Assembly: GCA_003598055.1 (NCBI GenBank)
Contig: QZKI01000026.1
Location: forward strand, 2,569-66,568
From: Candidatus Abyssobacteria bacterium SURF_17
GTDB taxonomy: Bacteria > Abyssobacteria > SURF-5
Length of the DNA stretch: 64,000 nt
Reading direction: 5' to 3'
This document shows, one piece after another, positions 1-18,388 of the stretch (the stretch's first letter is position 1; every line of letters begins with the position of its first letter). The notes under the pieces were generated by a model that was given only the letters and a program-made list of their open reading frames with translations, had not been told where the DNA came from and searched no databases. Position numbers and translations under genes: made by a program.

Positions 1-1316
1 TCATCGGCATACCTATTGATAGCAGGCCTGGTTGCTTTTGCGCCCAAGTTCCATCGCCAGGCGCGTCTGATTCCCCATGTCAGAAGCTCCACAGCGGCAG
101 ACTCCTTCCACGAGCGTCGCTTACCCTTGTAGATTTCATCGCCCTCCACGTCTTTGGCGCGGTATGAGAGAAACATCTTCGGATGATCGATTCCGCTGGG
201 GCAGATCTCCTTGCATTTTCCGCAGAGCGTACAGGCTCGATACAAATCCTGAGTCTTGTCCAGACCCAGCAGGAGCGGATTCAAAACCTGCCCCATCGGA
301 CCGGAGTAGGCCCAGCCATAGGGATATCCCCCAATCTTCATGTAGACAGGACAACCGTACATGCATGCCCCGCAGCGAATGCAGCGTAGCGCTTCCCGTG
401 CCTGAATGTCGCCATAAAAACGTGAGCGACCGTTATCTATGACGATTATAAATAGCTCCTCAGGCCCGTCAATCTCATCGGCTTTCTTAGGACCGCTGTC
501 CATCGACACATATGCGGATATCTTCTGCGCAGTGCAGTTCCGGCAGAGCAGGCGCAATAGATGCATGGCGTCGTTCATCGTGGGAACGACCTTTTCAAGG
601 GTCATGAGCGAAACTTGGGTGCGGGGCGATGACTTCGCGAAACGGATGTTGCCCTCATTCTCAACGTTGATAATCGTGCCCGTCTCAGCGACGGCCATAT
701 TGACACCGGTTATGCCCATCTGAAGATGATGGAACTTGTCCCTCAAGAACGCTCTAGCCGCCGCGCCCAGTGCGACTGGGTCCGTCGTCGGCTCTCTCAT
801 GATGCCTCTCTCGAGGAATATTTTACAGATTTCGTCCACGGGTATGTTGATTGCCGGACCCACGATGTGAAACGGGGGACGCTCGAGCAGTTGCGCGATG
901 AATTCACCGAGGTCGGCCTCGAACACCTCGATTCCGTTTGCCTTGAGAACGTCATTGAGGCCGATCTCCTCGGTCACCATGGATTTCCCCTTCGTCACAT
1001 ACCGGATTCCGCGCTCCTTCGCGAGTCTCAAAACGATGTCGTTCGCTTCCTTCGAATCACGAGCCCAAAGAACAACGGCTCCATGAGCGGCCGCCTTCTT
1101 TTCGAATTCTTCGAGAAGTTCCGGCATCCGCATAATTGCTTCGGCTCGAATTGCTCTGCCGTAAGCCAGCGCAGCCGCCGGGTCTGAAAATGAACTCATC
1201 GCTTCTTCGCGTCTCGCGTCGATGATGGAAGAGATGTAATCGAGCAGGGCTCGTGTGCGAACGTTCTTCAGTTCTTGCTCGGCAACGTGAGTAAATTGCT
1301 CAGTCTTGACCTTCAT
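1..1316 (-). CDS. lutB: Lactate utilization protein B (LutB/YkgF, LUD domain plus 2x[4Fe-4S]); runs off the left edge
   Basis: Not in the ORF track; manual minus-strand translation from ATG at 1316 (overlaps the lutA stop, ATGA) gives MKVKTEQF...KGKSMVTEEIGLN...ADLGEFIAQL...AETGT...NEGN...CIRCGACMYGCP...CTLCGKCKEICP, the LutB signature. Confidence 0.9.
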   Translation of the reverse strand, partial: MKVKTEQFTHVAEQELKNVRTRALLDYISSIIDARREEAMSSFSDPAAALAYGRAIRAEAIMRMPELLEEFEKKAAAHGAVVLWARDSKEANDIVLRLAKERGIRYVTKGKSMVTEEIGLNDVLKANGIEVFEADLGEFIAQLLERPPFHIVGPAINIPVDEICKIFLERGIMREPTTDPVALGAAARAFLRDKFHHLQMGITGVNMAVAETGTIINVENEGNIRFAKSSPRTQVSLMTLEKVVPTMNDAMHLLRLLCRNCTAQKISAYVSMDSGPKKADEIDGPEELFIIVIDNGRSRFYGDIQAREALRCIRCGACMYGCPVYMKIGGYPYGWAYSGPMGQVLNPLLLGLDKTQDLYRACTLCGKCKEICPSGIDHPKMFLSYRAKDVEGDEIYKGKRRSWKESAAVELLTWGIRRAWRWNLGAKATRPAINRYAD

Positions 1317-2053
1317 GCTTCACCGTTCCTCAGTGCATTTGCGAGGAATGTGGCAAGATGTACAATCTTTTTTTCGGGATGATGCCGGCTCAGGTAGCCG
1401 CCGATATTCAAGAGACAGCCCGGGTCGCATGTCACCAGAATGTCGGCGCCGCTTGCAATGTAATGCTTGACCTTCTGCTTGACCATAGCTTCGGAGATTT
1501 CCGGGTAATCATTTGCGAACTCGCCTCCGAACCCGCAACACGCTGTCTCTCTCTCCATAGGAACGAGCTCTGTCCCTTTGACGGCTCTGATGAGCTTTCT
1601 CGGTTGGTCGGAAATACCGAGACCACGCAGGAGCTGGCACGACGGGTGATAGGCGACTCTGCTCTCCGAGACGGCGCCGACATTTTCCATTCCAAGGATA
1701 TCAACGAGATATTGTGAGAGCTCATATGTACGGGAAGCGAGCTGTTCCGCCCGACTCAGCCAGGATGGTTCGTCTTGCAGAAGCTCCGGATACCGATGTC
1801 GAACGGTATGAACGCACGAGCCGGAGGGGCTCACTATCGTATCGTCATTCTCGAAGACCTCAATGAAATGCTTTGCAGCTTTCTTGGCCTGCTTGACATA
1901 GCCGCTGTTGATTGCCGGTTGGCCGCAACAGGTCTGTTCTTTGTGGTACAGAGGTTGTAGCCCGATGTGACGAAGCAGCAGGAATGCTGCTTCTCCCACT
2001 TCGGGCAAGAAGAGGTCCACCAGACAGGGAATAAACACCGAGACTCTGCTCAT
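1313..2053 (-). CDS. lutA: Lactate utilization protein A (LutA/YkgE, cysteine-rich CCG-domain Fe-S protein)
   Basis: FIPCLVD, QTCCGQP, SGSC, YHPSC, CCGFGG, DPGCL motifs; coupled to lutB. Confidence 0.9.
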   Translation of the reverse strand: MSRVSVFIPCLVDLFLPEVGEAAFLLLRHIGLQPLYHKEQTCCGQPAINSGYVKQAKKAAKHFIEVFENDDTIVSPSGSCVHTVRHRYPELLQDEPSWLSRAEQLASRTYELSQYLVDILGMENVGAVSESRVAYHPSCQLLRGLGISDQPRKLIRAVKGTELVPMERETACCGFGGEFANDYPEISEAMVKQKVKHYIASGADILVTCDPGCLLNIGGYLSRHHPEKKIVHLATFLANALRNGEA

Positions 2054-2172
2054 GGCGCTTATCTTCTACCTCAGATATGAGACGCACAATCCTGGAGTAT
2101 GAGTGTTCCCGGGAATGAATTACAGGCTGTGCGAGCACTGAGAACAGGCCGTCGTCGAATATCGGTACTCTG

Positions 2173-2811
2173 TTACGCAATTCCCAAAAGCTGACGTGCC
2201 TTATCGACGCCCGACGCCGCATCAGGCGCGTAACCGTCTGCCCCGATCTCGTCCGCATATCGCTGTGTGATGGGCGCGCCGCCGACCATAATTTTGACCT
2301 TGCTCGTCAGACCGGCCTGATGAAGCGCTTCTATGACCATTTTGAGATGGGGCATCGTGGTTGACAGAAGCGCAGACATGCCTACAATCTGAACGCCTTC
2401 TTGTTTGGCCGCCTCAACAAACTTCTCCGTGGACACATCTATACCGAGGTCCAAGACTTCGAAGCCGGCTCCCCGAAGCATCATTCCCACAAGGTTCTTT
2501 CCGATATCGTGCAGGTCACCCTTTACGGTGCCGATCGCGATTTTTCCAACCGGCTTCGCGCCTGTCTCGACAAGCTTTGGCTGTAAGATGCTCAATCCCG
2601 CGTGCATCGCCCGGGCGGCAATCAACACCTCAGGAATGTACATCTCATTCTTCTTGAACTTCTCGCCAACGATGTCCATGCCCGCAATCAACCCGTCTGA
2701 GAGAATCCGGGCCGGCGAGAGTCCTTCATTCAACGCATCGCTGGTGAGCTTCTTGACCGTCTCCATGTCGCCTTTTTGCAAAGCTTCGGAAAGTTGCCTC
2801 AAGTCTGCCAT
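2173..2811 (-). CDS. Corrinoid (B12-binding) methyl-carrier protein, MtbC/MtaC/MetH-cap-like
   Basis: GTVKGDLHDIGKNLV (DxHxxG), SALL, VGGAP, GADGYA; start MADLRQ at 2811 behind AGGAGG RBS. Confidence 0.92.
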   Translation of the reverse strand: MADLRQLSEALQKGDMETVKKLTSDALNEGLSPARILSDGLIAGMDIVGEKFKKNEMYIPEVLIAARAMHAGLSILQPKLVETGAKPVGKIAIGTVKGDLHDIGKNLVGMMLRGAGFEVLDLGIDVSTEKFVEAAKQEGVQIVGMSALLSTTMPHLKMVIEALHQAGLTSKVKIMVGGAPITQRYADEIGADGYAPDAASGVDKARQLLGIA

Positions 2812-2880
2812 CTCTTTGTTCCTCCTGAAAAGCTTAGCCCAACATTTGTCGCCCTCATGGACGGTCCCCAACGAGTGCTT

Positions 2881-2907
2881 GGGGCGGAGCATGCTGCGCC
2901 CCATTAC
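2881..2907. repeat. Degenerate REP-like palindrome
   Basis: GGGGCGGAGCATGCTGCGCCCC-attac, near-identical to the element at 58978. Confidence 0.6.
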
Positions 2908-2984
2908 AGAAGCGTGCGTCAAAGCTCACGAACATATCTGTGACGATGCGCCAGTGCTTATTTGCAGAGTTTCGCGACATACCT

Positions 2985-3046
2985 GTAGGTGCGAATTTAT
3001 TTGCATTGGCCGTTTCATGCCTCCAGCCGAATGAATTCGGCCCTAC
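2985..3046. repeat. Inverted REP doublet (REPIN/BIME-like)
   Basis: GTAGGTGCGAATTTATTTGCA on + (2985-3005) and GTAGGGCCGAATTCATTCGGC on - (3046-3026), 20 nt apart. Confidence 0.7.
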
Positions 3047-3084
3047 AATATGGCGAAAATCTCCGCAACCATGCGCTGGAAATG

Positions 3085-3882
3085 TCATTGTTCCAGTTTG
3101 TGAGCCCGGAAAGCAGCCAGGTACTGAGAACAATATTCGTCTCTTCCCAAGACCGTTTTTGCCGCAATGAGGCTTGCCATCATCTGCTTGTCAAGCGGGT
3201 CGAGAATAACGGCGTCGAGCCCTGCACTCATTGCTGCAACGAGAAAGATGCGATTGAGCAATCTCCGTTCAGGCAGGCCGAACGAGATGTTGCTGAGGCC
3301 GCACACAGCGTGAACGCCCGGGTACCTGTTCCGCACCTCTTGAATCATCCGCAGGGCAACCACTCCTCCATCCTGGGCGGTGCTCACGGCCATGATAAGC
3401 GGGTCTATATAAATGTCATCCGCGGCGATTCCGTCACGAAGCAGTGTCTCCACCAGCTCGCAGCCTATTTCGAGCTTATTCTCGAATTCCGTTGGGATGC
3501 CGCCGTCGCCCATGCAGAGGGCAACAACCTTGCATTCATGTTCTTTGATGAGCGGAAGTACTGCTGCATAGGTATCCTTCTCGGCGCTGATGGAATTAAC
3601 CATCATTCCCTTGCCGCAGATTCGGAGGGCCTCCCGTATGACAACGGGGTCGGAACTGTCTATACAGAGAGGCGCATCAACCTCTGCCCGCAAAGTCTTT
3701 GCCATCCAAAGAAGGTATTCCATTTCCCTTTCGGCAAACGTGCCAGCATTGACATCGAGGAAATGCGCACCCGCCTGAAGCTGCGCCTCAGCCTCTGCCT
3801 TTATGAAGGTTGCGGCGAATTTTTCGGCAGCCTCCGCAGCTTGCTTACGACTTGTGTTGAGACGTTCTCCGATGATGAGCAT
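3085..3882 (-). CDS. Methyltetrahydrofolate:corrinoid methyltransferase (AcsE/MtvA-like pterin-binding TIM barrel)
   Basis: MLIIGERLN, LDVNAG, PLCIDS, NSIS, YIDPL, GLSNISFGLP, AGLDAVILDP; adjacent to the corrinoid protein gene. Confidence 0.9.
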   Translation of the reverse strand: MLIIGERLNTSRKQAAEAAEKFAATFIKAEAEAQLQAGAHFLDVNAGTFAEREMEYLLWMAKTLRAEVDAPLCIDSSDPVVIREALRICGKGMMVNSISAEKDTYAAVLPLIKEHECKVVALCMGDGGIPTEFENKLEIGCELVETLLRDGIAADDIYIDPLIMAVSTAQDGGVVALRMIQEVRNRYPGVHAVCGLSNISFGLPERRLLNRIFLVAAMSAGLDAVILDPLDKQMMASLIAAKTVLGRDEYCSQYLAAFRAHKLEQ

Positions 3883-3907
3883 AAGTCTTCTCCGCGATTG
3901 TTAGTAG

Positions 3908-3990
3908 ACATTAGCATATAGGCCGTCTCTTGTCAAGAAAAATCCGGCTGAAGAATTGTCTTGACACAAAAAATCGGGAAATGGTAGAAT
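3908..3990. promoter_or_regulatory. Back-to-back sigma70 promoters
   Basis: + strand TTGACA(3961)-18-TGG-TAGAAT(3985); - strand TTGACA(3936)-17-TAATGT with extended TG. Confidence 0.6.
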
Positions 3991-4043
3991 CCAGGGCACA
4001 CGAGAGGACTATAAATTAGCATTTACTAGTAAAGAGGTGGCGT

Positions 4044-4673
4044 ATGGCTTGCTCTGCACATGCCTCGAACAGCGAGAAAAAAGTCCCGAGAATGAAATCG
4101 GAAGAGCGAAGGGAACAGATTCTCGAGGCGGCCCTTCATGTGTTCGCTCGGGAAAACTACCACGGCGCAACCACCGCAAAGATAGCCGAGGCGGCAGGCA
4201 TTACGGAGCCCGTAATCTACCAGCATTTCAAGAGCAAACGAGACCTTTTCCTGGAGGTTCTGAAGAGGAGCCGAAAGGATATGATCGAGTGGAATACGAA
4301 GGTGCTTGCGAAGCATGACGACCCAATCGAGCGTTACCAGGGTTTCACGGATATGTTCAAGTATTATACCACACAGTTCAACCGTGATTCAGCGATGATG
4401 TGGGCGGTCGCCGCGACGGTCAACGACTCTGACATCAAGGCGGAAATACGTGACACCGACGACGCGGTTCTGGAGCAACTTACCAATAACATCAGGAATT
4501 CGATGGAAGAGGGCAAGATCAGCTCGCGCCACGCCCCCCAGGTGTTGGCGAGAATCATTCACGGCATCAACTCGCACCTGTCCTGGCTGATACTCGTCGG
4601 AGAGAGCCGTACGCAGGATTGGGTTTATGAGGACCTCAAGCGGTTCATTGCAGATGTGATGAGAAAGGACTAG
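4044..4673 (+). CDS. TetR/AcrR family transcriptional regulator
   Basis: N-terminal HTH ILEAALHVF...YHGATTAKIAEAAGITEPVIYQHFKSK; GAGGTG RBS. Confidence 0.92.
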   Translation: MACSAHASNSEKKVPRMKSEERREQILEAALHVFARENYHGATTAKIAEAAGITEPVIYQHFKSKRDLFLEVLKRSRKDMIEWNTKVLAKHDDPIERYQGFTDMFKYYTTQFNRDSAMMWAVAATVNDSDIKAEIRDTDDAVLEQLTNNIRNSMEEGKISSRHAPQVLARIIHGINSHLSWLILVGESRTQDWVYEDLKRFIADVMRKD

Positions 4674-4778
4674 CGAGTCTTTCTTCTGGCCGAAGGGAAT
4701 TGAGGCCTGGAAATATGCCCCCTGTCACGCGCATGTCGAACCAGTCCTTGCGGATATGAGAGAAAGGAATTCGATGAA

Positions 4779-6257
4779 ATGGCAAGAATAAAGGTTGACA
4801 TCGACCGAAGAATCGGAATCATCAACCCAAGCATCTACGGCGGATTCATCGAGCATCTGGGAAGATGCATTTACGGCGGAATTTATGACGAAAGCTCTCC
4901 TCTGTCCGACGAGCGCGGTTTCCGAAAGGACGTGTTAGGAGCACTCAAGGCTTTGCGGCTCCCAAACCTGCGATACCCGGGCGGAAACTTCGTTTCCGGG
5001 TATCACTGGCAGGACGGCGTCGGCCCAAAAGAAAAACGCCCGCGCAAGATGGAATTCGCCTGGCATACTGTGGAGTCAAATCGGTTTGGCACCGACGAAT
5101 TCATCGAGTATTGTAGATCGCTCGAGACGGAACCTTTTCTCTGTGTCAACTTGGGCAGCGGCACTCCGGAGGAGGCCGCGGCCTGGGTCGAGTACTGTAA
5201 CGGAACCGAAGATTCTCATTATGCCAACATGCGCAAAGCCAACGGATATCCCGAACCCCACAACGTCAAATACTGGGGCCTTGGAAACGAAATGGGGGGA
5301 TACTGGCAGATTTGCGCGAAGAACGCCGGGGACTATGCCAAAATCGCCGTCGAAGCCGCCAAGATGATGCGATGGGTGGACCCCACCATAAAGCTGATTG
5401 GATGTGGCTTCCTTGAACAAGTTGATCCCCCATCATGGAATCTCGAAGTCGTTGATAAGCTCGCCGGTTTCATGGACTACATTTCTCTCCATATTTACAC
5501 CGGAAACTCTGATTATTACACCAATGTAGCCGGCCCCGTGCGCGCGCAACGACTGATAGACGTCTTCAATGCAACCATTACCATCGCAATGGCGGGGAAA
5601 AAAGCGCCGCGGCCGGAAATCGCGATGGACGAATGGAACGTTTGGTACAAGACCTTCGGCAGCGAGTTGGAGGAGCAGTACGACTTGTCGGATGCGCTTA
5701 CCGTTGCCGGGTTTCTCAATGTGATGCATCGCAATTGCACAACGGTGACGCTGTCAAATCTGGCACAGATGGTGAATGTGATCGCGCCTATTTTTACAAG
5801 TCCGGAGGGGCTATTCCTTCAAACCATCTACCATCCATTCAAAGTGTACCGGGACCACTGCCACAGAATCGCACTCGACGCGTTCGTGGACTCGTCGAGC
5901 TATGAAACAAGGGTTGTGCACGAATGGAGCGGCGCCGGAAATGAATCTCCGATTGAGACAGTGCCTTATCTTGATGTCTCGGCCACACTAAATGAGCATG
6001 CCACGGAGCTGAGCCTGGCAGTGATAAACCGACACAAGGATGAACCCATCGAGACAGAAATACACCTTGGCGATTTTCAACCGAAACGAACGGCCCTTGT
6101 CTATGAGATAAACGGGTCACGGGTGGATGTCCAGAATTCGTTCTCGGAGCCCGATAATGTGACCACAACAGAAAAACGGTTCGAAAAAGCAGCAGGTGCG
6201 TTCAAATATCAATTCCCCGCCCATTCCATCACCCTTTTGAAGCTTGCGAGAGCTTGA
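4779..6257 (+). CDS. abfA: Alpha-L-arabinofuranosidase, GH51
   Basis: GGFIEHLGRCIYGG, RYPGGNF, LGNEM (acid/base), DEWNVW (nucleophile); no signal peptide. Confidence 0.92.
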   Translation: MARIKVDIDRRIGIINPSIYGGFIEHLGRCIYGGIYDESSPLSDERGFRKDVLGALKALRLPNLRYPGGNFVSGYHWQDGVGPKEKRPRKMEFAWHTVESNRFGTDEFIEYCRSLETEPFLCVNLGSGTPEEAAAWVEYCNGTEDSHYANMRKANGYPEPHNVKYWGLGNEMGGYWQICAKNAGDYAKIAVEAAKMMRWVDPTIKLIGCGFLEQVDPPSWNLEVVDKLAGFMDYISLHIYTGNSDYYTNVAGPVRAQRLIDVFNATITIAMAGKKAPRPEIAMDEWNVWYKTFGSELEEQYDLSDALTVAGFLNVMHRNCTTVTLSNLAQMVNVIAPIFTSPEGLFLQTIYHPFKVYRDHCHRIALDAFVDSSSYETRVVHEWSGAGNESPIETVPYLDVSATLNEHATELSLAVINRHKDEPIETEIHLGDFQPKRTALVYEINGSRVDVQNSFSEPDNVTTTEKRFEKAAGAFKYQFPAHSITLLKLARA

Positions 6258-6269
6258 GAACTCAAGAGA

Positions 6270-7265
6270 ATGGCGCCAGAGCGTCACATTGTAGTCATCG
6301 GCGGAATGAACATGGATTTGGTGTGCAAGGCCGCAGTTGCGCCACGCCCCGGTGAGACAGTTGTTGGTGAAAGCTTTTACAAAGGCCTCGGCGGCAAGGG
6401 AGCGAATCAGGCGATTATGGCGGCCCGCCTCGGTGCGCCTGTCAGTTTTGTCGGGCGGGTTGGCGACGATGAATTTGGGCGGGAAATGTTGGCCGCCATG
6501 CGGGCGAACGGCGTCAGCACAGACTACATGAGAGTGGTTGACGGCTGCTCAAGCGGGATTGCGCTTATCATTGTGGATGCTAAAGCGCAGAATCAGATCG
6601 TTGTCATTCCCGGAGCCAATGATAGATTGGAGCCAAAGGATATAACGGACGCCGAGGAACTCATCGCCAAATCGTCTCTGATGGTTACGCAGTTCGAGTC
6701 GCCTTTGGAAACGGTAGAGACCGCTATCAACGTTGCGGCAGAGCACGGCGTCCCGGTTATTCTCAATCCGGCGCCAGTCATAACGCAGAAAATTAGCCCG
6801 TCAACATTAAAGAAAGTACAGATGCTTGTGCCGAATGAAACGGAGGCCGAGGCGCTAACCGGAGTAAAGCAAGATGTCCCGGATTTTGCGATGGCCGCCG
6901 CGGGATCTCTCCGCGAAATCGGTGTCGAGAGAGTGATTGTCACGCTTGGAGACGTCGGAAGCGTAATTGCCGACCCGCAAACGTTGAAGCGAATACCGGC
7001 ATACAAGGTCACTCCGATAGACACAACTGCAGCGGGCGACGCCTTCGTAGGAGCGCTTGCGGCTGGATACTTCCTTTTCGATGAATTGGAAATGCTTGCG
7101 AGATTCGCATCCGCCGCGGGTGCGCTTGCCGTTACAAAAAAAGGCTCACAAGTATCACTGCCGTCTCGGCAGGACTTAGAAAGGTTTCTGTCCCAGCATG
7201 ATTCGGCATTGCTGTCCCATTTTCAACATAAGCCCTCCGACAACAACCACGACTACTCGCCGTGA
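6270..7265 (+). CDS. rbsK: Ribokinase / PfkB family sugar kinase
   Basis: GGKGANQA, NPAP, PNETEA, DTTAAGDAF. Confidence 0.85.
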   Translation: MAPERHIVVIGGMNMDLVCKAAVAPRPGETVVGESFYKGLGGKGANQAIMAARLGAPVSFVGRVGDDEFGREMLAAMRANGVSTDYMRVVDGCSSGIALIIVDAKAQNQIVVIPGANDRLEPKDITDAEELIAKSSLMVTQFESPLETVETAINVAAEHGVPVILNPAPVITQKISPSTLKKVQMLVPNETEAEALTGVKQDVPDFAMAAAGSLREIGVERVIVTLGDVGSVIADPQTLKRIPAYKVTPIDTTAAGDAFVGALAAGYFLFDELEMLARFASAAGALAVTKKGSQVSLPSRQDLERFLSQHDSALLSHFQHKPSDNNHDYSP

Positions 7266-7292
7266 GCGGCAATTAATGGGAGCGGTTTTCTT

Positions 7293-9122
7293 ATGAGTAA
7301 TTGGAAACCTGTTCCGGGACACATCATGACCAGATGGGCGACGAGGGTCGATCCGTCTGCTCCGTTGGCCGAGTATCCTAGGCCGCAGATGGTGCGTCCC
7401 GAGTGGAAGAATCTAAACGGTCTCTGGGAATATGCAGTCACGCCGAAAGAAGCGGCACTGCCGGAAACGTTCGAAGGCAGTATTCTGGTTCCATTTGCCA
7501 TTGAAACGGCATTGTCTGGCGTCAAACGGTCCCTGCAGCCGCATGAGAGATTGTGGTACCACCGCTCCTTTACGATTCCGCCCGGCTGGTCGAGCAAACG
7601 AATCTTGCTGCATTTTGAAGCTGTGGATTGGCATTGCATCTGCTCCGTGAATAGTAAAGAAATCGGGGAGCACACCGGAGGATATGTCCCCTTCTCTTTT
7701 GATATCACCAAATATCTGACAACGGGTGAGAACGAACTTGTAGTAGCTGTATGGGACCCCACTGATACGCACTGGCAGCAAAGAGGCAAACAAGTCCTCA
7801 ACCCGAAAGCTACTTATTACACGGCCACGAGTGGCATATGGCAGACAGTGTGGCTGGAACCAGTGCCCTTCGAGAATCATATCGAGTATCTGCGTCTCCA
7901 GCCCGACATTGACTCTGAATCCCTGCGGGCAACCATTTACGCGGTATCCGCCGGCAGAGCAAGAGTGACCGTTTATGCTGCAGAAAAACAGGTCAGCCGC
8001 ATAGAGGGTGATGTAGGTCAAGAGCTGCGCCCGCCGATACCTGCTCCCAGATTATGGTGTCCGCAGGATCCCTTCCTTTACGATTTGAAAGTCGAACTTT
8101 TGAAAGGGGAACAGGTCATAGACTCGGTCAAGAGTTATTTCGGCATGCGCAAGATATCCGTCGATACGGATGCATCCGGCCACAGGCGAGTTTTTCTCAA
8201 CAATAAGCCCATCTTCCTGCACGGTCCTCTTGACCAGGGTTATTGGCCCGATGGCGGGCTGACTCCGCCTTCAGACGAAGCCTTGATTTTTGATATAGAG
8301 AAGACCTTGCAGTTAGGATTCAACATGACCCGCAAGCATGTCAAAGTGGAGCCAAGGCGATGGTACTATCACGCTGACCGTCTGGGCCTGATTGTAATCC
8401 AGGACATGGTCTCCGGCGGAAAGGATAAGCAGAGCGAGAAAGAAAACGTTCTTACCGTACTATTCGACATACAACGGAAGGATACGGGCAAGAAGGCTCT
8501 CCGTAAGGCGTGGCGCGAAACCCCTGAATCACGCCAAGATTTCGAGCGGGAACTGGTCGAGATTATCAATCATCTGTATAATGCTCCCAGCATAGTTGCC
8601 TGGGTTCCGTTCAACGAATCCTGGGGCCAATACGAAGCCGCTCGAATGGCGAATCTTGTCAGGGCGCACGATCCCTTCCGACTGGTGGACCACGCCTCAG
8701 GCTGGCAGGACCAGAGGGCGGGCGACTTCTGCAGCCGGCACACATATGTCATCAAACTGAAGCCGCCTCCCAGGAAAGATGAGAGAATCTATTTCATTTC
8801 TGAGTATGGAGGGTACAACTGCCAGGAGCCGGGGCATCTGTGGAATAAGGAGAGCAAGTTCGGATACAGGATGTTCAAGGACAGGAGGACACTCGCCGAA
8901 GCCTTTGCCAAGCTGATACGCGCCCAGTTGATCCCCCTGATCCCCAAAGGACTGGGCGCCGCAGTCTATACGCAATTCAGTGACGTTGAGATTGAATCGA
9001 ACGGTTTTTTCACCTTTGACAGGGAAATTCTGAAGATTGACAAGGAGCAGACTGCTGCCCTCAACAAGGAGATATACACAGCCTTTGAGACAGTGGAGAA
9101 GCAGCATACGAACGGCACCTAG
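7293..9122 (+). CDS. Glycoside hydrolase family 2
   Basis: LLHFEAVDW, HTGGY, LDQGYWPDG, RKHVKVE, WVPFNESWGQ, SEYGG; no signal peptide. Confidence 0.88.
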   Translation: MSNWKPVPGHIMTRWATRVDPSAPLAEYPRPQMVRPEWKNLNGLWEYAVTPKEAALPETFEGSILVPFAIETALSGVKRSLQPHERLWYHRSFTIPPGWSSKRILLHFEAVDWHCICSVNSKEIGEHTGGYVPFSFDITKYLTTGENELVVAVWDPTDTHWQQRGKQVLNPKATYYTATSGIWQTVWLEPVPFENHIEYLRLQPDIDSESLRATIYAVSAGRARVTVYAAEKQVSRIEGDVGQELRPPIPAPRLWCPQDPFLYDLKVELLKGEQVIDSVKSYFGMRKISVDTDASGHRRVFLNNKPIFLHGPLDQGYWPDGGLTPPSDEALIFDIEKTLQLGFNMTRKHVKVEPRRWYYHADRLGLIVIQDMVSGGKDKQSEKENVLTVLFDIQRKDTGKKALRKAWRETPESRQDFERELVEIINHLYNAPSIVAWVPFNESWGQYEAARMANLVRAHDPFRLVDHASGWQDQRAGDFCSRHTYVIKLKPPPRKDERIYFISEYGGYNCQEPGHLWNKESKFGYRMFKDRRTLAEAFAKLIRAQLIPLIPKGLGAAVYTQFSDVEIESNGFFTFDREILKIDKEQTAALNKEIYTAFETVEKQHTNGT

Positions 9123-9161
9123 AGGATTCCCATCGGTGAATCCGGGAGAAGGAAGGAACCC

Positions 9162-10184
9162 ATGAGCACACTCACCCCAAGAGAACGAGTGATCGCCGCG
9201 CTTAGGTACGAAGAAACCGACATTATTCCATACGATATCATGATAGAACCCGAGGTCGAAGACCGCTTGAATGAACATTACGGCGGGAGAACATGGGAAA
9301 GCATGATAGAGAAGCATGTGGTTTTCGTGGGTTTTCCCGTCATGGCACGGCCGGAACCGGTAGACGAAAAGCATGTAAGGGACGAATACGGCTGCATATG
9401 GGATTTCTCGGCTCGTCCGATACACGCCGTGCAGTTCCCCATTCAAGAGCCAAGTGTTGAAGGATACAATTTCGATGCGGTGTTGCAGGTGGTTCTCGAT
9501 TCCTTTGATAAGAACAGCGCCGATTTAATCATTGGCGAGAGCACAGACAAGTTTGTCTTGGGACAGCTCAACTTCGGCCTGTTCGAACGCTCGTGGACGC
9601 TCCGTGGCTTCGAGAATGTTCTGGTTGACAGTATTCTGAATACTGCCTTCTATGAGGAGTTACTCGACCGTATTCTTGAAATGCAGCTTGCGATGATAGA
9701 CAAACTCTGCGAGTTTCCCATAGACGGCGTCTTTCTCGGAGACGACTGGGGTGACCAGCGTGGCGTCATGCTTGGTCCGGATAGATGGCGTCGGCTCCTC
9801 AAGCCACGCACACAAAAGCTGTACGAGCGTATTCACAAAGCGGGCAAACCGGTCTTCACTCACTGCTGCGGCAATATTTTCGAGATTATTCCCGATGTGA
9901 TTGAGATGGGATTGGACGTTCTCGAATCGCTTCAACCGGAGGCAATGGACGTATATGAGATAAAACGACGCTTCGGCAAGAATCTGAGGCTGTGGGGCGG
10001 GTTGGGGACGCAACAGGTCCTCCCTTTTGGCACAGCAGACGAAGTGCGTACCGAAATTCGCCGGCTGATCAAGGAAATGGGCCGGGGCGGCGGTTATATA
10101 CTTGCTCCGGCCAAACCACTCCTGCCGGAAGTGCCGACGGAAAACGCAGTCGCTGTCATCGAGGAATTTGCACAAAGAGGATGA
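9162..10184 (+). CDS. URO-D/MtaA-CmuA superfamily protein (putative methylcobamide methyltransferase) 1
   Basis: GDDWG, HCCG, LQPE, LWGGLGTQ, GGGYILAP. Confidence 0.85.
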   Translation: MSTLTPRERVIAALRYEETDIIPYDIMIEPEVEDRLNEHYGGRTWESMIEKHVVFVGFPVMARPEPVDEKHVRDEYGCIWDFSARPIHAVQFPIQEPSVEGYNFDAVLQVVLDSFDKNSADLIIGESTDKFVLGQLNFGLFERSWTLRGFENVLVDSILNTAFYEELLDRILEMQLAMIDKLCEFPIDGVFLGDDWGDQRGVMLGPDRWRRLLKPRTQKLYERIHKAGKPVFTHCCGNIFEIIPDVIEMGLDVLESLQPEAMDVYEIKRRFGKNLRLWGGLGTQQVLPFGTADEVRTEIRRLIKEMGRGGGYILAPAKPLLPEVPTENAVAVIEEFAQRG

Positions 10185-10242
10185 GCACCATGCGGCTCAC
10201 GCGTTTGTGCGAGCACCGTTCTCAGAGGAGGAGAAGAGAAGC

Positions 10243-11340
10243 ATGAATGTCGAATTGCAGCAGTTGCTCGACCTGTACCTGCAACCGACGCCGGTTCCAG
10301 CGGACATGACGAGCCGAGACATCGTTTGCAAGGCCGTTGAGTTCGACAACCCTCCGCGCATCCCCTACAGCTTTGTTACCCCGGTTGCGAGCGATTTCTT
10401 CGAGGTTGCCGCGGTGCCCAAGTTTATTGCGCTTGTTGACTCTCAGAGTGAAGTCGCAAACGTGTGGGTTGCCGAACAGAATAAAGAGCGGAGAAATCGC
10501 GGCGAAAAATACTACGATGAATGGGGCGTCGGTTGGGAAGTGACCGGCAGGCTGTGGGATCACTCTTTTGATCATCCGCTGCGTGATTTGCGAAAGCTCG
10601 ATAGCTATCAGTTCCCTAATGTAGTTGCTCCCGAGAAGTTTGATGTGCTCAGGCCGTATGTCACGCAAGCGCGCGATGCCGGGAAGTATGTCGTGGGGTT
10701 CGACCCAATTCTCTTGTTTGAGAGAATGCGGGCACTTCTCGGTTTTGAAGAACTCATGGTCGCGCACTACACCCAATCCGATGGCTTGGAGGCACTGCTA
10801 GACCGATTGGCCGACCTGGAAGTGGCCGTGGTAGGGGAGTGGGCGCGGATAGAGGGCGTTGATGCATACATGACGTGGGACGATTGGGGACTCCAAACGT
10901 CGCTCCAGATGAGTCCTGAGGCCTTCCGGAAATATTACAAGCCACGATATGCGAAAATCGTCGAGGCCGCACATTGGCAGGGTATGCACTATATTTGGCA
11001 CAACTGCGGACAAATATTCGATATCATTCCGGACATGATAGAAATCGGCGTGGATGTCATTCAACTCGATCAGCCTCGCCTGATGGGATATGACGAATTA
11101 GCAGGCGCATTTGGTGGGAAGATTTGTTTCTGGAACACGCTTGACATACAGTGGTCAACCATAGAGAACCCGACCGAGGATGAGGTGCGGGCCGAGGTGT
11201 CAAGAATGGTGAGGGCCTTCAATTGCTTCCATGGAGGATTTATGGCCCGCCAATATCCGGATGTGCTTGACATTGAAATGCCTTATGAGCGCCACCTGGC
11301 GATTTATGAGGCTTTCCTCGCGAATGGATGCGCGTTGTAA
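10243..11340 (+). CDS. URO-D/MtaA-CmuA superfamily protein 2
   Basis: YYDEWGVGW, WDDWG, HNCG, QLDQP; start chosen at MNVELQ behind a GAGGAG RBS. Confidence 0.82.
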   Translation: MNVELQQLLDLYLQPTPVPADMTSRDIVCKAVEFDNPPRIPYSFVTPVASDFFEVAAVPKFIALVDSQSEVANVWVAEQNKERRNRGEKYYDEWGVGWEVTGRLWDHSFDHPLRDLRKLDSYQFPNVVAPEKFDVLRPYVTQARDAGKYVVGFDPILLFERMRALLGFEELMVAHYTQSDGLEALLDRLADLEVAVVGEWARIEGVDAYMTWDDWGLQTSLQMSPEAFRKYYKPRYAKIVEAAHWQGMHYIWHNCGQIFDIIPDMIEIGVDVIQLDQPRLMGYDELAGAFGGKICFWNTLDIQWSTIENPTEDEVRAEVSRMVRAFNCFHGGFMARQYPDVLDIEMPYERHLAIYEAFLANGCAL

Positions 11341-11505
11341 CAACAGTTGACATCGGGAACTCTGCGGTATGTCTCATCGGGCAGCATTCGCATTCTTCTC
11401 CCCCCATTCGGTGCAATTCGTTGAGGAAGAAAGACTGAATCTGAAGAGAAGTATAATACGGGGGCCTAATCAGATTTTCGCAAACCCGGAAAGGAAACAC
11501 AGACA

Positions 11506-12615
11506 ATGAAAAAGCAACTACGAGTGGGATTCGTCGGATGCGGCGAAGCCACGCAAGCGCTTCACACACCGGCGCTGAACAGCCTGGCCTCACTCTATCG
11601 CATTGCCGCTTGCACCGACGCAAGCGCGGAGGTCATGGCGCAGGTGGCATCCCGCACGGGCGCAAGGCCGATAGAGCGGCCACTTGACCTCATCAATGAC
11701 CCTGACGTTGACGTTGTTCTCATAGCCACGCCCGACATGTATCATAGTGATTATGCGCTTGCCGCATGCACGGCGAAGAAAAAGGCCGTGCTCGTGGAGA
11801 AGCCCATGACGCTCAATCCGCGCATGGCGCGGGAAATTGCGCGCGCATCCGACGAAACCGGAGTTCCCGTCCTCGTGGGCTACGTGCATGTTTACGACCC
11901 GGCGGTCCGGAGGGCGGCGGAGCTTTGGGGCGAAACAGGATTTTTCAATTACGGCCAGTTTCGGTGCTTCCTCGGGCCAAATGAAAAGTATACTGCGGAC
12001 GATATTCTCCAGACTATACGACCCGCCATGGCCGACCGCTGGCCGGGCCTGATCAACCAGCTTAGCCTGGCCGCAGTCTCAACTGAACTTCTCGGTACGG
12101 GCGTCGAGGTAAAGTATGTGGTGGGCCACGCGCTTCTTCGAGGGCTTGTCATCCACGATATTCCGGTTATGCGCCGGCTGCTCGGCGAGCCGGTGAAGGT
12201 GGATTACGCCTCCATACGGGCTATGGGCCCGCCGATGAGCGAGGTTGGGATGGCCATTGACGTCATGTTCGATTACGGCCAAGGAAGGGTTCTTCTCCAG
12301 GCCGAATTCGAGAAAATGAAAGTGACCGACTGGGGCTTTCAACTGCGCCGCGACGACCTGCACCTGCACGTCCAGTATCCGCCAACCTTTGCAGCGGCTG
12401 CACCTTCCACGTGCAAAGCTATATATGAAAAAAACGGAATGACAGTCGAGGAAATTCACGGCGGTCGCTACGAGACCGGTTTCCGATGCGAATGGAAGCA
12501 TATTTACGACGTGGTAACAGCGGGAGTTGCGCCGATTGCCAGCGCACAGGATGCTGTGAAAGACCTTGAGCTTGTCGACGAAATCATAACGGTTGCAGTA
12601 AAGAGTGGCAATTAG
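11506..12615 (+). CDS. Gfo/Idh/MocA family NAD(P)-dependent oxidoreductase
   Basis: VGFVGCG Rossmann start, ATPD..H, VEKP, IHD. Confidence 0.88.
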   Translation: MKKQLRVGFVGCGEATQALHTPALNSLASLYRIAACTDASAEVMAQVASRTGARPIERPLDLINDPDVDVVLIATPDMYHSDYALAACTAKKKAVLVEKPMTLNPRMAREIARASDETGVPVLVGYVHVYDPAVRRAAELWGETGFFNYGQFRCFLGPNEKYTADDILQTIRPAMADRWPGLINQLSLAAVSTELLGTGVEVKYVVGHALLRGLVIHDIPVMRRLLGEPVKVDYASIRAMGPPMSEVGMAIDVMFDYGQGRVLLQAEFEKMKVTDWGFQLRRDDLHLHVQYPPTFAAAAPSTCKAIYEKNGMTVEEIHGGRYETGFRCEWKHIYDVVTAGVAPIASAQDAVKDLELVDEIITVAVKSGN

Positions 12616-12625
12616 GGGGTGCTGA

Positions 12626-13699
12626 ATGAATACGCCATCGGGAGTTGCATTCGTAGGAGCCGGTTTCATTTCCTATCTGCATCTGTTTGCCATACGCAGC
12701 AATCCAAATGTAAGACTTGTTGCGCTCGCATCCCGTTCGAGGGACATCGCCGAAAACAGGGGCAGAATATTCAATGCCGACCCGTATACGTTCGACAACA
12801 TGGGCACAATGCTCGGCCGAAAAGATATAGATATCGTATGTGTGCTGAGCCCCAACTCACTCCACGCCGAACACGCGCTTGCCGCAATCAAGGCGGGTAA
12901 GCACATCGTCATCGAAAAGCCCATGACGGTGACCTTGGCCGATGCCGACGCCATCGTCAAGGCCGCTGAATCAGCAGGCGTAGGAATCGGATACGCCGAA
13001 AATCAAGTGTTCGCGCCTGTCTTAATGAAAGGACGCGAGCTGGTCGAGCAGGGAGCGATAGGCAAGGTGAAGAGCGTCGTTGGCTTCTGCGGACACGGCG
13101 GCCCGTCCAAAGCCGGTTGGTTCTGGAAACCACAATTCTCCGGCGGCGGCGCGAACATAGACCTCGGGCCGCATACACTCGAAAGCGCGCTCTATTTAGC
13201 GGGCAAACCAGCGATAAAGAGGGTAAAATCGAGCCAAATCACCGAGGCGCCCGAAGGAGGAATCGACGTCAAAGCCGAATTCGTGCTCGAATCCGACAAC
13301 GGAATCGAATTCACCATAACCAGCTCTTGGCTTGAGGAGGATGACAATTTCTATTATGAGGTCTTCGGCGAAAAGGGGAGTATTAAATGCGTGTTTGCGC
13401 CCGTCCCCCAGTTCGTAACGCTCTTTCCTGAGCAGGGCGAGCCGGAAGACATAGAGTTTCCAGGCCGATTCGACATGCACCTTGACAAGTATGTTGCCAG
13501 TATGGGCTATGTCGGCCAGCTCGAACACTTCGAAAAATGCTTCAGGACCGGTGCGATTCCGTCTGAATCGGGAACCGATGGCAGAACCGTGCTCCGGATT
13601 TTGGGCGCCGCATACCTGTCGGCCGCGAAGCAAGCGCCCGTGGAGTTGTCGTCAATCCCTTCAGACAAGACGCCGATACAACTCTGGCTTGGAAACTAA
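12626..13699 (+). CDS. Gfo/Idh/MocA family oxidoreductase
   Basis: VAFVGAG, PNSLH, IEKP, GGGANIDLGPH. Confidence 0.9.
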   Translation: MNTPSGVAFVGAGFISYLHLFAIRSNPNVRLVALASRSRDIAENRGRIFNADPYTFDNMGTMLGRKDIDIVCVLSPNSLHAEHALAAIKAGKHIVIEKPMTVTLADADAIVKAAESAGVGIGYAENQVFAPVLMKGRELVEQGAIGKVKSVVGFCGHGGPSKAGWFWKPQFSGGGANIDLGPHTLESALYLAGKPAIKRVKSSQITEAPEGGIDVKAEFVLESDNGIEFTITSSWLEEDDNFYYEVFGEKGSIKCVFAPVPQFVTLFPEQGEPEDIEFPGRFDMHLDKYVASMGYVGQLEHFEKCFRTGAIPSESGTDGRTVLRILGAAYLSAAKQAPVELSSIPSDKTPIQLWLGN

Positions 13700-13741
13700 G
13701 CGCTGAATATCACAAATCGCGAGAGATATTCTCGCGCCTCC

Positions 13742-13822
13742 GTAGGGGCCGTTCGCGAACGGCCCGTACGAAGCATTGACCACAAATTCCTTCGTAGCGG
13801 CGACCCGGTGGGTCGCCCTTAC
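13742..13822. repeat. Tandem pair of GTAG REP-like palindromes
   Basis: GTAGGGGCCGTTCGCGAACGGCCCGTAC (13742-13769) and GTAGCGGCGACCCGGTGGGTCGCCCTTAC (13794-13822). Confidence 0.7.
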
Positions 13823-13880
13823 AAGAGATGAGAGAATATGCCACCATATTCATGAGAAACACCACTAGGAGCGCGACATA

Positions 13881-14963
13881 ATGAGCATCAATCTGCATTT
13901 CACCGACGATGACTGGCAACGAATCGAGCGCGACTGGACCGCCTGGTGGGCGGGCGGACTCGACCGTCCCCTAGTCATCATCGAAAATCCCACTTCGCTA
14001 TTACCTTTGTCAATGGAAATGACGCATGAGTTCCTTCTCGAGAAACCCATTGATGAGGTACTCGACCATCATCAGATGCTCCTCGAGGCCCGAGAATTCT
14101 ATGGCGATGCGTATCCCAGATGGTGGCCCAACTTCGGCCCCGGCATTATGGCCGGTTTTCTCGGCGCCAAGGTCAACTGTGACCCTGAGATGGCCACGGT
14201 ATGGTTCGAGCCGAATGAGAAGCCAGCCATCGACGAGTTACGATTCACGTACGACGCTGAGAATCCCTGGTGGAAGCGTATAAACGACCTCACGCGAAGG
14301 GCGGTCGAACGATGGGGAAATAAAGTCTGCATCGCACATACCGACCTTGGCGGAAACCTTGACATCCTCGCCTCTTTTCGAACAACGCAGCAGCTCATCT
14401 ATGACTTGTTTGACGCTCCCGGAGAAGTGGTTCGGCTCTGTGGAGAGATAACGAAACTGTGGGTGCGATATTACGATGAACTCGATGCGATCATCAAGAA
14501 AGCAGGCCGCGGGACAACGCCATGGGCGCCGGTCTGGTCACCTAAGCGCTGTTACATGTTACAAAGTGATTTCTCGTACATGATATCGCCCGAGATGTTC
14601 CAGAAATTCGTTATGCCCGACCTCGAGGCATGCTGTTCGACTCTCGACCATCCCTTCTACCATCTCGACGGCCATGGACAAATCCGCCATCTCGACGCGC
14701 TTCTCTCAATCGGGAAACTTGCGGGCATCCAATGGATTCCGGGCGACGGGCAGCCGCCGGAGGAGGAATGGCTCGAGCTCCTCAAACGCATCAGGGACGG
14801 CGGGAAACTCTGTCAGCTTTTCGTAACGGCGGAAGGTGCGCGCACTATTGTCAAGGAACTCGGCGGCCGAGGGTTCGTATTTTATATCATGTCGTTCATA
14901 TCCTCTCGCGAAGAAGCCGACGATTTTCTCCGCGTTCTCGCTGCTGAAGATTCATCTCGATGA
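13881..14963 (+). CDS. URO-D/MtaA-like superfamily protein 3 (HLDG subtype)
   Basis: WWPNFGPG..AGFLG, DLGGNLD, QSDFSYMISP.MF..F..P, YHLDG, IQWIPG. Confidence 0.7.
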   Translation: MSINLHFTDDDWQRIERDWTAWWAGGLDRPLVIIENPTSLLPLSMEMTHEFLLEKPIDEVLDHHQMLLEAREFYGDAYPRWWPNFGPGIMAGFLGAKVNCDPEMATVWFEPNEKPAIDELRFTYDAENPWWKRINDLTRRAVERWGNKVCIAHTDLGGNLDILASFRTTQQLIYDLFDAPGEVVRLCGEITKLWVRYYDELDAIIKKAGRGTTPWAPVWSPKRCYMLQSDFSYMISPEMFQKFVMPDLEACCSTLDHPFYHLDGHGQIRHLDALLSIGKLAGIQWIPGDGQPPEEEWLELLKRIRDGGKLCQLFVTAEGARTIVKELGGRGFVFYIMSFISSREEADDFLRVLAAEDSSR

Positions 14964-15013
14964 GCTGTTTTTTTGAACCATGCGGGGCAACGCATGCAGT
15001 CTGTTGCCAGAAC

Positions 15014-16030
15014 TCATAGCCCTGGGATAATTCGCCGGGCGTTTTCGTAATAAATTTTCCGAAGGATATCATCAGGCAAGTTGATGCCTCGGATGTTCCA
15101 GTTTCTCAGGCGAGGTTCACTCGGCGGAATCGCTTCGTCCTCGGTCTCGTAGAATCTGAAAATTGTGGAATTGTAACGCCCCATTTCTTCGGTCCACTGT
15201 TCCACTTCCGACGTCTTATCCAACGCACTCATGACGATAATGTCGGTGCCGTGCATTATTCGGTCAGCACATTTCACGAACAGTTCTCGCGTTTTCTCGG
15301 GATGCCTGCCGGCTTCATCAACAACCGCGGAGGCATCCACAAAGAAATTCGGGAATTCGTCGAGGTTTGCGGCCACGTGAGCCACTTCCATATCCCATGC
15401 ATCGCTGCCGAGATGCGCGCCGATGAATGTCGTGTTCGGGTGCTTTCGTATAACGTTGTTCCGTCGCCGCATCAACTCCTCGAAGCTCGGGAAATTCTCA
15501 CGGCCGTAATAGACCCATGCGGGAATTTCCTCCAATAAGAGACGCCATGGATTGTACTCATCAACCGGTCTCCAATATGCCGGTGGGTCGCCGATGTGAA
15601 TCAATACAGGCATCCCAAGCTCACTGGCCTTATCCCAGACCGGGTCAAGCCGTGGGTCGTCCGGAGCGATGAGAATTCCTGACCGCTCTCGTGCAACCAG
15701 CCCCAACTCTTTCGAAACTTTGATGCCCACCGCGCCGACTTCCTTGCTCCGCGCGAGATGCTCTCTTTGTTTCCTCGCATAGTCTGGCTCATCTATGGTG
15801 GTAAGGTCGAATGTGACCATCACGGCAAGGCGGTCGGGATGGGCGCGCGTATGTTTGAAACAAATGGATTCGTTGTATTTCATGACCTCCTGATTATCCA
15901 TCCCCATCGCGAGCAGAATCGATTTCTCGACGCCGTGAGTATCCATCAAATGAAGCATGCAGTCGGTATCAGCGAAGAGGTGGGTGTGAACATCAATCTT
16001 ATGTGCGATGCGGCTCTTGTAGTTCTCCAC
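15014..16030 (-). CDS. Amidohydrolase_2 family metallohydrolase
   Basis: IDVHTH, LIHIGDP, AHLG, HGTD; GTG start behind AGGAG. Confidence 0.87.
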   Translation of the reverse strand: MENYKSRIAHKIDVHTHLFADTDCMLHLMDTHGVEKSILLAMGMDNQEVMKYNESICFKHTRAHPDRLAVMVTFDLTTIDEPDYARKQREHLARSKEVGAVGIKVSKELGLVARERSGILIAPDDPRLDPVWDKASELGMPVLIHIGDPPAYWRPVDEYNPWRLLLEEIPAWVYYGRENFPSFEELMRRRNNVIRKHPNTTFIGAHLGSDAWDMEVAHVAANLDEFPNFFVDASAVVDEAGRHPEKTRELFVKCADRIMHGTDIIVMSALDKTSEVEQWTEEMGRYNSTIFRFYETEDEAIPPSEPRLRNWNIRGINLPDDILRKIYYENARRIIPGL

Positions 16031-18364: not shown

Positions 18365-18388
18365 ACTCCGCTGACCTCGGCCACGCAC

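Follow-up and report, generated by a model that had tools for sequence, protein, structure and literature searches.

Can the methyl ethers of methylated sugars be removed by corrinoid (B12) chemistry, without O2? This question is raised by a gene island at the left end of a 64,000-nucleotide stretch of DNA (hereafter the window) from Candidatus Abyssobacteria bacterium SURF_17 (contig QZKI01000026.1, positions 2,569 to 66,568), in which a corrinoid carrier protein (CP) and a methyl-corrinoid:tetrahydrofolate (THF) methyltransferase (MT2) are encoded divergently from glycosidases of the glycoside hydrolase (GH) families, a sugar kinase, dehydrogenases, and proteins of the URO-D/MtaA fold. Methyl ethers on sugars block ordinary glycolytic processing, and methylated sugars include 6-O-methylgalactose in porphyran, 2-O-methylfucose and 2-O-methylxylose in the pectin rhamnogalacturonan II, methyl-rhamnoses in algal and bacterial glycans, and 2′-O-methylribose in RNA. 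To our knowledge, the sole methyl-sugar demethylase described is an O2-dependent cytochrome P450 acting on 6-O-methyl-D-galactose. We propose that the island encodes corrinoid-dependent methyl transfer wired into cytoplasmic sugar catabolism and that its likeliest job is the O2-free O-demethylation of methylated sugars, a reading of the gene content that we think somewhat more probable than its opposite.

Genes were identified from a listing of open reading frames (ORFs) together with Pfam and NCBIfam profile searches, with bit scores judged against the cut-offs of the models. All the genes that an earlier note on this DNA had listed were found where it placed them, in an island that proved larger: LutA and LutB had gone unlisted, and LutC and two URO-D genes lie outside the window. 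The minus-strand operon runs MT2, CP, LutA, LutB and, beyond the window edge, LutC and the two URO-D genes. The part of the contig left of the window (G000:C14:1-2568) holds a LutC-like gene (C14:1729-2415), URODm1 (C14:561-1658, 365 aa), and URODm2 (C14:2-502), which is truncated by the contig end; the operon may continue past it. The LutB-like gene, whose 3′ end lies beyond the window edge, is complete at G000:C14:2406-3887. CP carries the DxHxxG motif as DLHDIG, scores 203 bits against TIGR02370, and has MtgC as its best named model, with a score under the cut-off of that model. CP probably starts at M38 (2811): the alignment with relatives begins only at about residue 29-38, and the relatives have stop codons upstream of it. 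MT2 scores 314.8 bits against NF005719 (cut-off 259) and is 32% identical to the MT2 copy in the Wood-Ljungdahl cluster of the genome on contig C1; its predicted role is the transfer of methyl groups from the carrier to THF. The LutA, LutB, and LutC genes are all present in order, the LutB-like protein scoring 372.6 bits against TIGR00273, under the cut-off of 444.8. LutABC belongs to the CP operon, and URODm1 and URODm2, both outside the window, are candidates within it for the substrate-specific methyltransferase (MT1) that would demethylate the donor.

By gene layout, the island can be likened to the anaerobic O-demethylases, namely MtvABC of Moorella thermoacetica, OdmABCD/Vdm of Acetobacterium dehalogenans, the systems of Desulfitobacterium, and MtoABCD of Methermicoccus. 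O-demethylases consist of a substrate-specific MT1, a small B12 carrier with a DxHxxG motif, a pterin-methylating MT2, and an ATP-dependent RamA/RACo activase, and they have in common with the island several MT1 paralogues beside one carrier (PMC8630106). The corresponding parts were found here: a CP with DxHxxG, an MT2, MT1 candidates encoded with CP (an arrangement kept in two loci of same-family genomes, L016 and L018), and RACo genes in the genome. The known substrates of the O-demethylases are phenyl methyl ethers. The island differs from these systems in that the activase is encoded elsewhere in the genome, in that its MT1 candidates are new, divergent URO-D-fold clades, one of them without a Pfam model, and in that these candidates lie in operons with genes for glycosidases, sugar kinases, isomerases, and Gfo dehydrogenases. 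The architecture is thus a known one, the novelty being in the candidate MT1 clades and in the sugar context; full-text literature searches on methyl-sugar, sugar-locus URO-D, and non-aryl corrinoid demethylation returned no report of corrinoid-dependent sugar demethylation. The P450 that demethylates 6-O-methyl-D-galactose in marine aerobes has the role proposed here, the removal of a methyl ether that blocks catabolism, and its gene lies among glycan-degrading genes. However, it needs O2 and releases formaldehyde, whereas the proposed island system would be independent of O2, use cob(I)amide as the nucleophile, and keep the methyl group as methyl-THF, and the proteins are unrelated.

In same-family genomes, CP and MT2 are accompanied by orthologues of UROD1, UROD2, URODm1, URODm2, both Gfo genes, GH2, and TetR, in shuffled order. 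In L018 (genome G260), the minus strand carries MT2 (64% identity), CP (70%), an IU_nuc_hydro gene, URODm2 (63%), URODm1 (81%), GfoA (67%), GfoB (64%), GH4, GH2 (68%), and an RraA-like aldolase, in an operon with intergenic gaps of at most about 185 bp, and the opposite strand carries TetR (68%), UROD2 (71%), a GH29 fucosidase, and another URO-D gene. In L016 (G262), TetR (63%), UROD2 (66%), UROD1 (73%), a class II aldolase (RhaD), an FGGY kinase (RhaB), and RhaA stand opposite MT2 (63%), CP (77%), IU_nuc_hydro, URODm2 (65%), an anaerobic sulfatase maturase, and a sulfatase. TetR keeps its position in both loci and is directly followed by the UROD2 orthologue, GH29 being next in L018. The closest organism-named homologue of UROD1 (71%) is that of Candidatus Abyssubacteria SURF_5, in which locus L001 combines it with RhaD, RhaB, RhaA, and GH51 (80%), the GH51 gene immediately preceding that of UROD1. 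X360, the third URO-D-fold protein of the plus strand, has orthologues (74%) in L002, directly after a UROD1 orthologue and GH1, and in L008 (G004, 10001-14130), directly before LutA, LutB, and LutC orthologues (58-73%; LutB 73%, LutA 67%). An association that outlasts rearrangement is a classical sign of functional coupling, and because the linkage does so here, it ties together CP, MT2, the five URO-D-fold proteins, TetR, the Gfo pair, the glycosidases, and LutABC. At L008, no corrinoid gene was seen within 10 kb, and immediately upstream are genes for a glycyl-radical enzyme and for its activase.

A pattern scan for relatives of UROD1 found 245, of which 80 loci were kept; the relatives come from Anaerolineae, Chloroflexia, Planctomycetota, Kiritimatiellia, Lentisphaeria, Victivallales (including metagenome-assembled genomes of Victivallis vadensis, one of them the source of loci L044, L078, and L099), Armatimonadota, and others. 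The distant ones adjoin sugar ABC permeases, GH31, GH95, sulfatases, and Gfo genes. Among 107 same-strand neighbours at 47 loci, a Pfam tally that is approximate since genes at foreign loci were called crudely as longest ORFs, sugar-type ABC permeases were counted nine times, URO-D six, Gfo/Idh/MocA four, GH31, sulfatases, and IclR three times each, and GH95 twice. A CP 51-77% identical to that of the window lies within 10 kb in 6 of the 80 loci. Three of these linkages were verified with Pfam: L075 holds a URO-D gene, CP, a UROD1-like gene overlapping it by 4 bp, a regulator, and GH31; L029 holds a UROD1-like gene, URO-D, and CP; and L063 holds a substrate-binding protein (SBP), two permeases, a UROD1-like gene, IclR, two Gfo genes, a xylose-isomerase-like barrel, LacI, CP, and URO-D, with a homocysteine S-methyltransferase gene alongside. 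CP is also linked to UROD1 relatives in L032 and L060. In Chloroflexota, UROD1 relatives directly adjoin corrinoid proteins and sugar ABC importers, and Gfo pairs adjoin them in Chloroflexia. The earlier note had made its reading depend on a conserved link of such URO-D genes to glycosidases or corrinoid genes; both links were found, in sibling genera as well as in distant phyla.

The main rival to sugar demethylation is that the methyl groups come from aromatic methyl ethers of phenolic glycosides. The island would then be a classical aryl methyl ether O-demethylase, in which the GHs strip methoxylated phenolic glycosides (flavonoid or lignan rhamnosides and arabinosides), the URO-D proteins take the methyl group off the aromatic aglycone, and the sugar genes do no more than consume the sugar that is released. 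This account matches the layout of MT1, CP, MT2, and activase, acetogen-type use of the methyl group alone needs no aromatic catabolic genes, the neighbouring amidohydrolase is a weak match to an aromatic acid decarboxylase, and all characterised bacterial and archaeal MT1s of such architecture use phenyl methyl ethers (PMC8630106). However, the relatives of UROD1 are found in operons that also contain genes for sugar-type ABC importers, for GH31, GH95, GH29, and sulfatases, or for full RhaD/RhaB/RhaA sets, and the carriers belong to polysaccharide-degrading lineages (Planctomycetota, Kiritimatiellia, Victivallales, and Anaerolineae). The islands conserve neither an aromatic transporter nor an aromatic-ring enzyme, the amidohydrolase is not conserved with them, and some planctomycete carrier genomes have up to 82 URO-D-like first-look candidates. 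Trp, Asp, Glu, Gln, Arg, and Asn, moreover, are abundant among the invariant residues of the UROD1 and X360 families, which would be more typical of sugar sites, although this is weak evidence. We consider the aryl-ether account unlikely.

At the genome level, RACo was chosen as the marker of corrinoid methyl transfer because a stand-alone CP is a weak one: the sole CP in the Kiritimatiellia genome adjoins AhcY- and PurB-like genes (judged by eye) and may serve methionine synthesis. All five distant carrier genomes that were searched contain a stand-alone CP and one to four RACo genes. Among 301 sampled genomes of Planctomycetota, with the UROD1 clade defined at E <= 1e-60, RACo was present in 22 of 23 clade-positive genomes and in 80 of the 278 others (29%; Fisher p 1.5e-10), and in Anaerolineae (n = 251) it was present in all 61 genomes with the X360 family and in 137 of 190 others (p 4.7e-8), statistics that ignore phylogeny, genome completeness, and anaerobic lifestyle. 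UROD1-positive planctomycetes mostly have 11-82 URO-D-like first-look candidates (one has just 2), and the listed non-carriers mostly have 0-10 (two have 20 and 26), an expansion that in our reading fits families of substrate-specific MT1s. Many of the second-class RACo matches in planctomycetes (about 200-270 bits) contain one in-frame TAG, TGA, or TAA codon. The demethylation reading of the earlier note thus gains conserved linkage and RACo co-occurrence; that the donor is a sugar and not a phenolic aglycone, which sugar it is, the direction of transfer, and the activity of the enzymes we infer from gene content.

Turning to the candidate MT1s themselves, the earlier note had described three URO-D/MtaA-like proteins in the window. 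Two of them, UROD1 and UROD2 (true ATG at 10243), are recognised by PF01208, and the third, X360, resembles these enzymes at the level of the fold only. X360 has no Pfam match (E 10), no NCBIfam match, no match among structures in the Protein Data Bank (PDB) by phmmer, and no BLAST similarity to other URO-D genes. An AlphaFold2 model built from 27 homologues (pLDDT 88.9) and searched with Foldseek has as its top matches MtaA (4ay8/4ay7) and UroD, with probability 1.00 and TM 0.46-0.62, and the predicted structure assigns X360 to the URO-D/MtaA fold. The family comprises 2181 representative clusters, with H261-x-D263-G and C311 invariant. By sequence, the best solved relative of UROD1 is likewise MtaA (Methanosarcina mazei MtaA, PDB 4ay7/4ay8; E 1e-10), a member of the MtaA/MtbA family. 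In the UROD1 family, H234-x-C236-G237 is retained and aligns with the H-x-C of MtaA 4ay7, but an invariant K318 occupies the position of the third zinc ligand, which is lost in the island proteins; no coenzyme M chemistry is expected in this bacterium. The corresponding motifs are H-N-C in UROD2, D-T-D in URODm1, and H-S-C (HSC..GN) in URODm2, with HLD also present among the paralogues. Against TIGR01463, the scores are 61.5 and 35.5 bits (cut-off 235.4), with the H-x-C...C triad incomplete, and against the HemE model TIGR01464 they are 20.2 and 17.3 bits (cut-off 302.95). By these measures the island URO-D proteins are placed outside the MtaA/MtbA thiol-methylating family.

Several observations weigh against sugar demethylation. 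In the proteins, the zinc triad of MtaA is incomplete in every island paralogue, and the MtaA/CmuA models are far under their cut-offs (about 36-63 NCBIfam bits vs 235-400). Chemically, a phenolate leaves more readily than a sugar alkoxide, and all the characterised URO-D-type MT1 enzymes that we know of act on aryl methyl ethers, thiols, or halides. In the genomes, 74 of the 80 UROD1-family loci lack a corrinoid protein within 10 kb (the demethylation model would require that most of these carriers be encoded at other loci), the base rate of RACo is high (79% of the sampled Anaerolineae), and the co-occurrence statistics have the limits given above. In the island itself, there is neither a RACo/RamA activase, none being found on its contig, nor a CUT1 sugar ABC transporter, none being found in the window, as the earlier note had also observed. 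Finally, the nearest homologues of CP and MT2 in sibling genomes (60-75% identity) adjoin MttB-family genes, so the CP/MT2 module is a generic one.

The protein-level points could mean that the plus-strand UROD1, UROD2, and X360 are not corrinoid methyltransferases. They would then catalyse some other cofactor-independent or metal-dependent sugar step (decarboxylation, elimination, or isomerisation), with CP and MT2 serving only URODm1 and URODm2 or an MT1 encoded elsewhere. The altered triad, the absence of a nearby CP at most UROD1-family loci, and the lack of sequence-level similarity of X360 to any methyltransferase would all be accommodated, and UroD itself, which has the same fold, is a cofactor-free decarboxylase. 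Yet CP directly adjoins a UROD1 relative in L075 and is linked to one in L029, L032, L060, and L063, TetR, UROD2, and UROD1 stand opposite MT2 and CP in L016, and the UROD1 and X360 clades co-occur strongly with RACo. The genome also has 21 PF01208 matches, with paralogues scoring up to 220 bits. Those on contigs C16 and C29 keep the complete H-x-C...G-C triad, and the one on C119 has the non-canonical H-T-D motif, an H-x-D motif like that of X360. Because the C119 paralogue sits in a second, textbook CP-URO-D-MT2 operon, non-canonical motifs are compatible with a corrinoid MT1 role. To the possibility that the plus-strand proteins are not methyltransferases we therefore assign a low probability.

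The generic nature of the carrier module admits another reading, in which the methyl groups stem from other small compounds, such as methylated amines, methylated thiols, or methanol from methyl esters, and the sugar genes share a regulator for ecological and not mechanistic reasons. In the glycine-betaine and quaternary-amine systems (MtgB/MttB as MT1, with MtgC and MtgA), the carrier resembles CP, whose best named model is the glycine-betaine carrier MtgC, and sibling genomes pair orthologous CP and MT2 with MttB-family genes under a BetI-type TetR. The island, by contrast, has no MttB-family gene and its MT1 candidates are of the URO-D fold; neither MttB nor MtaB genes were found in the island, L016, or L018, where the neighbours of CP are URO-D-type genes that share a transcription unit with Gfo and GH genes. 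The island proteins also lack the H-x-C...C triad that is retained in MtaA-like thiol enzymes. We regard this reading as very improbable. MT2-CP modules were seen beside MttB-family methyltransferases at L017:3103-7042 (G259) and L014:8791-11810 (G001); the BetI-type TetR of the G259 module points to a quaternary-amine system that employs this type of carrier module.

The earlier note had stated that no RamA activator is present, which holds for the contig; elsewhere, the genome encodes four RACo/RamA activases (PF14574), on contigs C92, C1, C16, and C45, and these remove the objection of the missing activator. The C1 copy lies in a Wood-Ljungdahl cluster with MTHFR, AcsB, and MT2, and methyl-THF therefore has a destination. 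We also considered LutABC as a new corrinoid reductase replacing RamA and set it aside: besides the four RACo genes, relatives have the IU-type hydrolase at the LutABC position, and there is the precedent of LutABC (lldEFG) genes that belong to rhamnose regulons of other bacteria (PMC3870299). At C26:33248-39010, a paralogue of URODm1 (70%) lies about 3 kb from a LarA-type gene (lactate racemase family, judged by eye), a second lactate-related neighbour besides the LutABC genes beside URODm1 itself.

Other paralogues in the genome were seen in comparable company. A fused B12-binding and URO-D protein of about 620 aa at C28:33137-39873 has the canonical H-C-C...G-C triad and a B12 motif without His (DGPWTIG). 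The genes immediately downstream of its own, in the same orientation, encode an apparent SBP, a pair of CUT1-type permeases, and an ABC ATPase; a PfkB gene follows at C28:41174-42097. This CUT1-type permease pair is one of only two detected in the genome. At C102:11204-14724, a UROD2-like paralogue (32%) stands beside genes that by eye resemble the MetH activation domain and the homocysteine S-methyltransferase domain, and the locus may be a split, methionine-forming methyl-acceptor branch. At C7:69639-74837, a second IU-type nucleoside-hydrolase-like gene adjoins a 140-aa B12-binding-domain ORF, with a MetE-like gene (by eye) nearby.

Table 1. Features of the island within the window
Feature	Position	Strand	Evidence
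LutB-like iron-sulfur protein, LUD domain and 4Fe-4S dicluster	3..1316	-	PF02589, PF13183
LutA-like protein, CCG (cysteine-rich) domains	1313..2053	-	PF02754, two copies
Corrinoid (B12) carrier protein, CP	2173..2811 (ORF to 2922)	-	PF02607 and PF02310
MT2, predicted pterin-binding methyl-corrinoid:THF methyltransferase, AcsE-like	3085..3882	-	PF00809, NF005719
Shared control region, two back-to-back promoter-like sites	3883..4043	.	Inverted repeat I2, promoter boxes
TetR-family regulator	4044..4673	+	PF00440
GH51, alpha-L-arabinofuranosidase-type glycosidase	4779..6257	+	PF06964
Ribokinase (PfkB family)	6270..7265	+	PF00294, TIGR02152
GH2, beta-D-galactofuranosidase-like subgroup	7293..9122	+	GH2 domains, PDB matches
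UROD1, URO-D/MtaA fold, candidate sugar-specific MT1	9162..10184	+	PF01208, 82 bits
UROD2, URO-D-fold paralogue, candidate MT1	10243..11340	+	PF01208, 50.6 bits
Gfo/Idh/MocA oxidoreductase A (GfoA)	11506..12615	+	PF01408
Gfo/Idh/MocA oxidoreductase B (GfoB)	12626..13699	+	PF01408, PF22725, PF02894
X360, 360 residues, Pfam-less URO-D/MtaA-fold family, candidate MT1	13881..14963	+	Predicted fold
Amidohydrolase_2 protein, convergent to X360	15014..16030	-	PF04909

Among the sugar enzymes, GH51 scores 452 bits against the ArfA model, under the cut-off of 625, and the best solved relatives of GH2 are 7sf2 (E 2e-157) and the beta-D-galactofuranosidase 9j6n (E 3.7e-150). Neither glycosidase has an N-terminal hydrophobic leader as judged by eye, in keeping with the claim of the earlier note that both lack a signal peptide. 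Its PfkB kinase can be specified further: the gene passes the ribokinase equivalog model TIGR02152 (337.5 bits against a cut-off of 299.65). The amidohydrolase that it had counted in the island is present, but its membership is doubtful because no orthologue was found in the islands of the relatives, a result that also rules it out as a conserved sugar lactonase acting in the pathway; gamma-resorcylate decarboxylase (E 3.8e-4) is the one PDB entry related to it, and it probably lies outside the island system. Past the island end (about 16030), at window positions 16211-19597, a 717-aa protein with a spermidine-synthase-like domain is followed by a CdaA (DAC) c-di-AMP cyclase with a YbbR domain, both of which appear unconnected to the island.

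Between the divergent operons, a promoter-like TTGACA-18-TAGAAT lies at 3961-3990, and the -35 boxes of both promoter-like sites make up the inverted repeat I2 (3931-3966). We considered this repeat as the TetR operator, and it is better read as the two divergent -35 boxes. A box, TAGTAGACATTAGCATAT, a putative operator, adjoins the MT2 start and recurs as TAGTAGATACTAGCATAT in the relative L018. An Rfam scan of the whole window found no riboswitch or other RNA element.

These elements can be arranged into a pathway for the demethylation of methylated sugars. Imported oligosaccharides or glycosides would be trimmed in the cytoplasm by the leaderless exo-glycosidases (GH51 and the galactofuranosidase-like GH2), a step for which relatives would use GH29, GH4, GH1, or the IU-type nucleoside hydrolase. 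The five URO-D/MtaA-fold proteins (UROD1, UROD2, X360, URODm1, and URODm2) would act as substrate-specific MT1s, each transferring the methyl group of a sugar ether to Co(I) of CP, from which the AcsE-like MT2 would pass it to THF; methyl-THF would then enter the Wood-Ljungdahl pathway of the genome, for acetyl-CoA synthesis or oxidation. Co(II) would be re-reduced by one of the four RamA/RACo activases whose genes lie on other contigs. The ribokinase (RhaA/RhaB/RhaD in relatives) would phosphorylate the freed sugar, or the Gfo/Idh/MocA pair would oxidise it, and LutABC would convert lactate, formed from the lactaldehyde of 6-deoxyhexose breakdown, to pyruvate. TetR would control both divergent operons.

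As to the sugars, the context in this genome points to furanoses (arabinose, galactofuranose, or ribose), because of GH51, the galactofuranosidase-like GH2, and the ribokinase, together with the IU-type hydrolase between CP and URODm2 in relatives; in the relatives, it points to methyl-rhamnose or methyl-fucose because of the RhaA/RhaB/RhaD set and GH29. A wider proposal, to which we give slightly less than an even chance, is that UROD1, UROD2, URODm1, URODm2, and X360 are the MT1 parts of a widespread, undescribed, O2-independent B12 pathway that removes sugar methyl ethers across anaerobic glycan degraders and delivers the methyl group to C1 metabolism. Such a pathway would extend over Chloroflexota, Planctomycetota, Kiritimatiellia, Lentisphaerota, and their relatives, and its substrates would include methyl-rhamnose, methyl-fucose, methylated furanoses, and possibly 2-O-methylribose from 2′-O-methyl nucleosides.

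The island gathers the carrier, MT2, a regulator, five MT1 candidates, and sugar enzymes in one place, and its relatives give specific guesses of the substrates. It bears on how anaerobes of sediments, the subsurface, and guts process methylated sugars. If the proposal is true, the methyl groups of polysaccharides would supply methyl-THF to acetogenesis, methionine synthesis, or oxidation, and corrinoid methyltransferase chemistry would reach aliphatic ethers. Very large unannotated families would also gain a function, X360 alone accounting for more than 2000 representative clusters.

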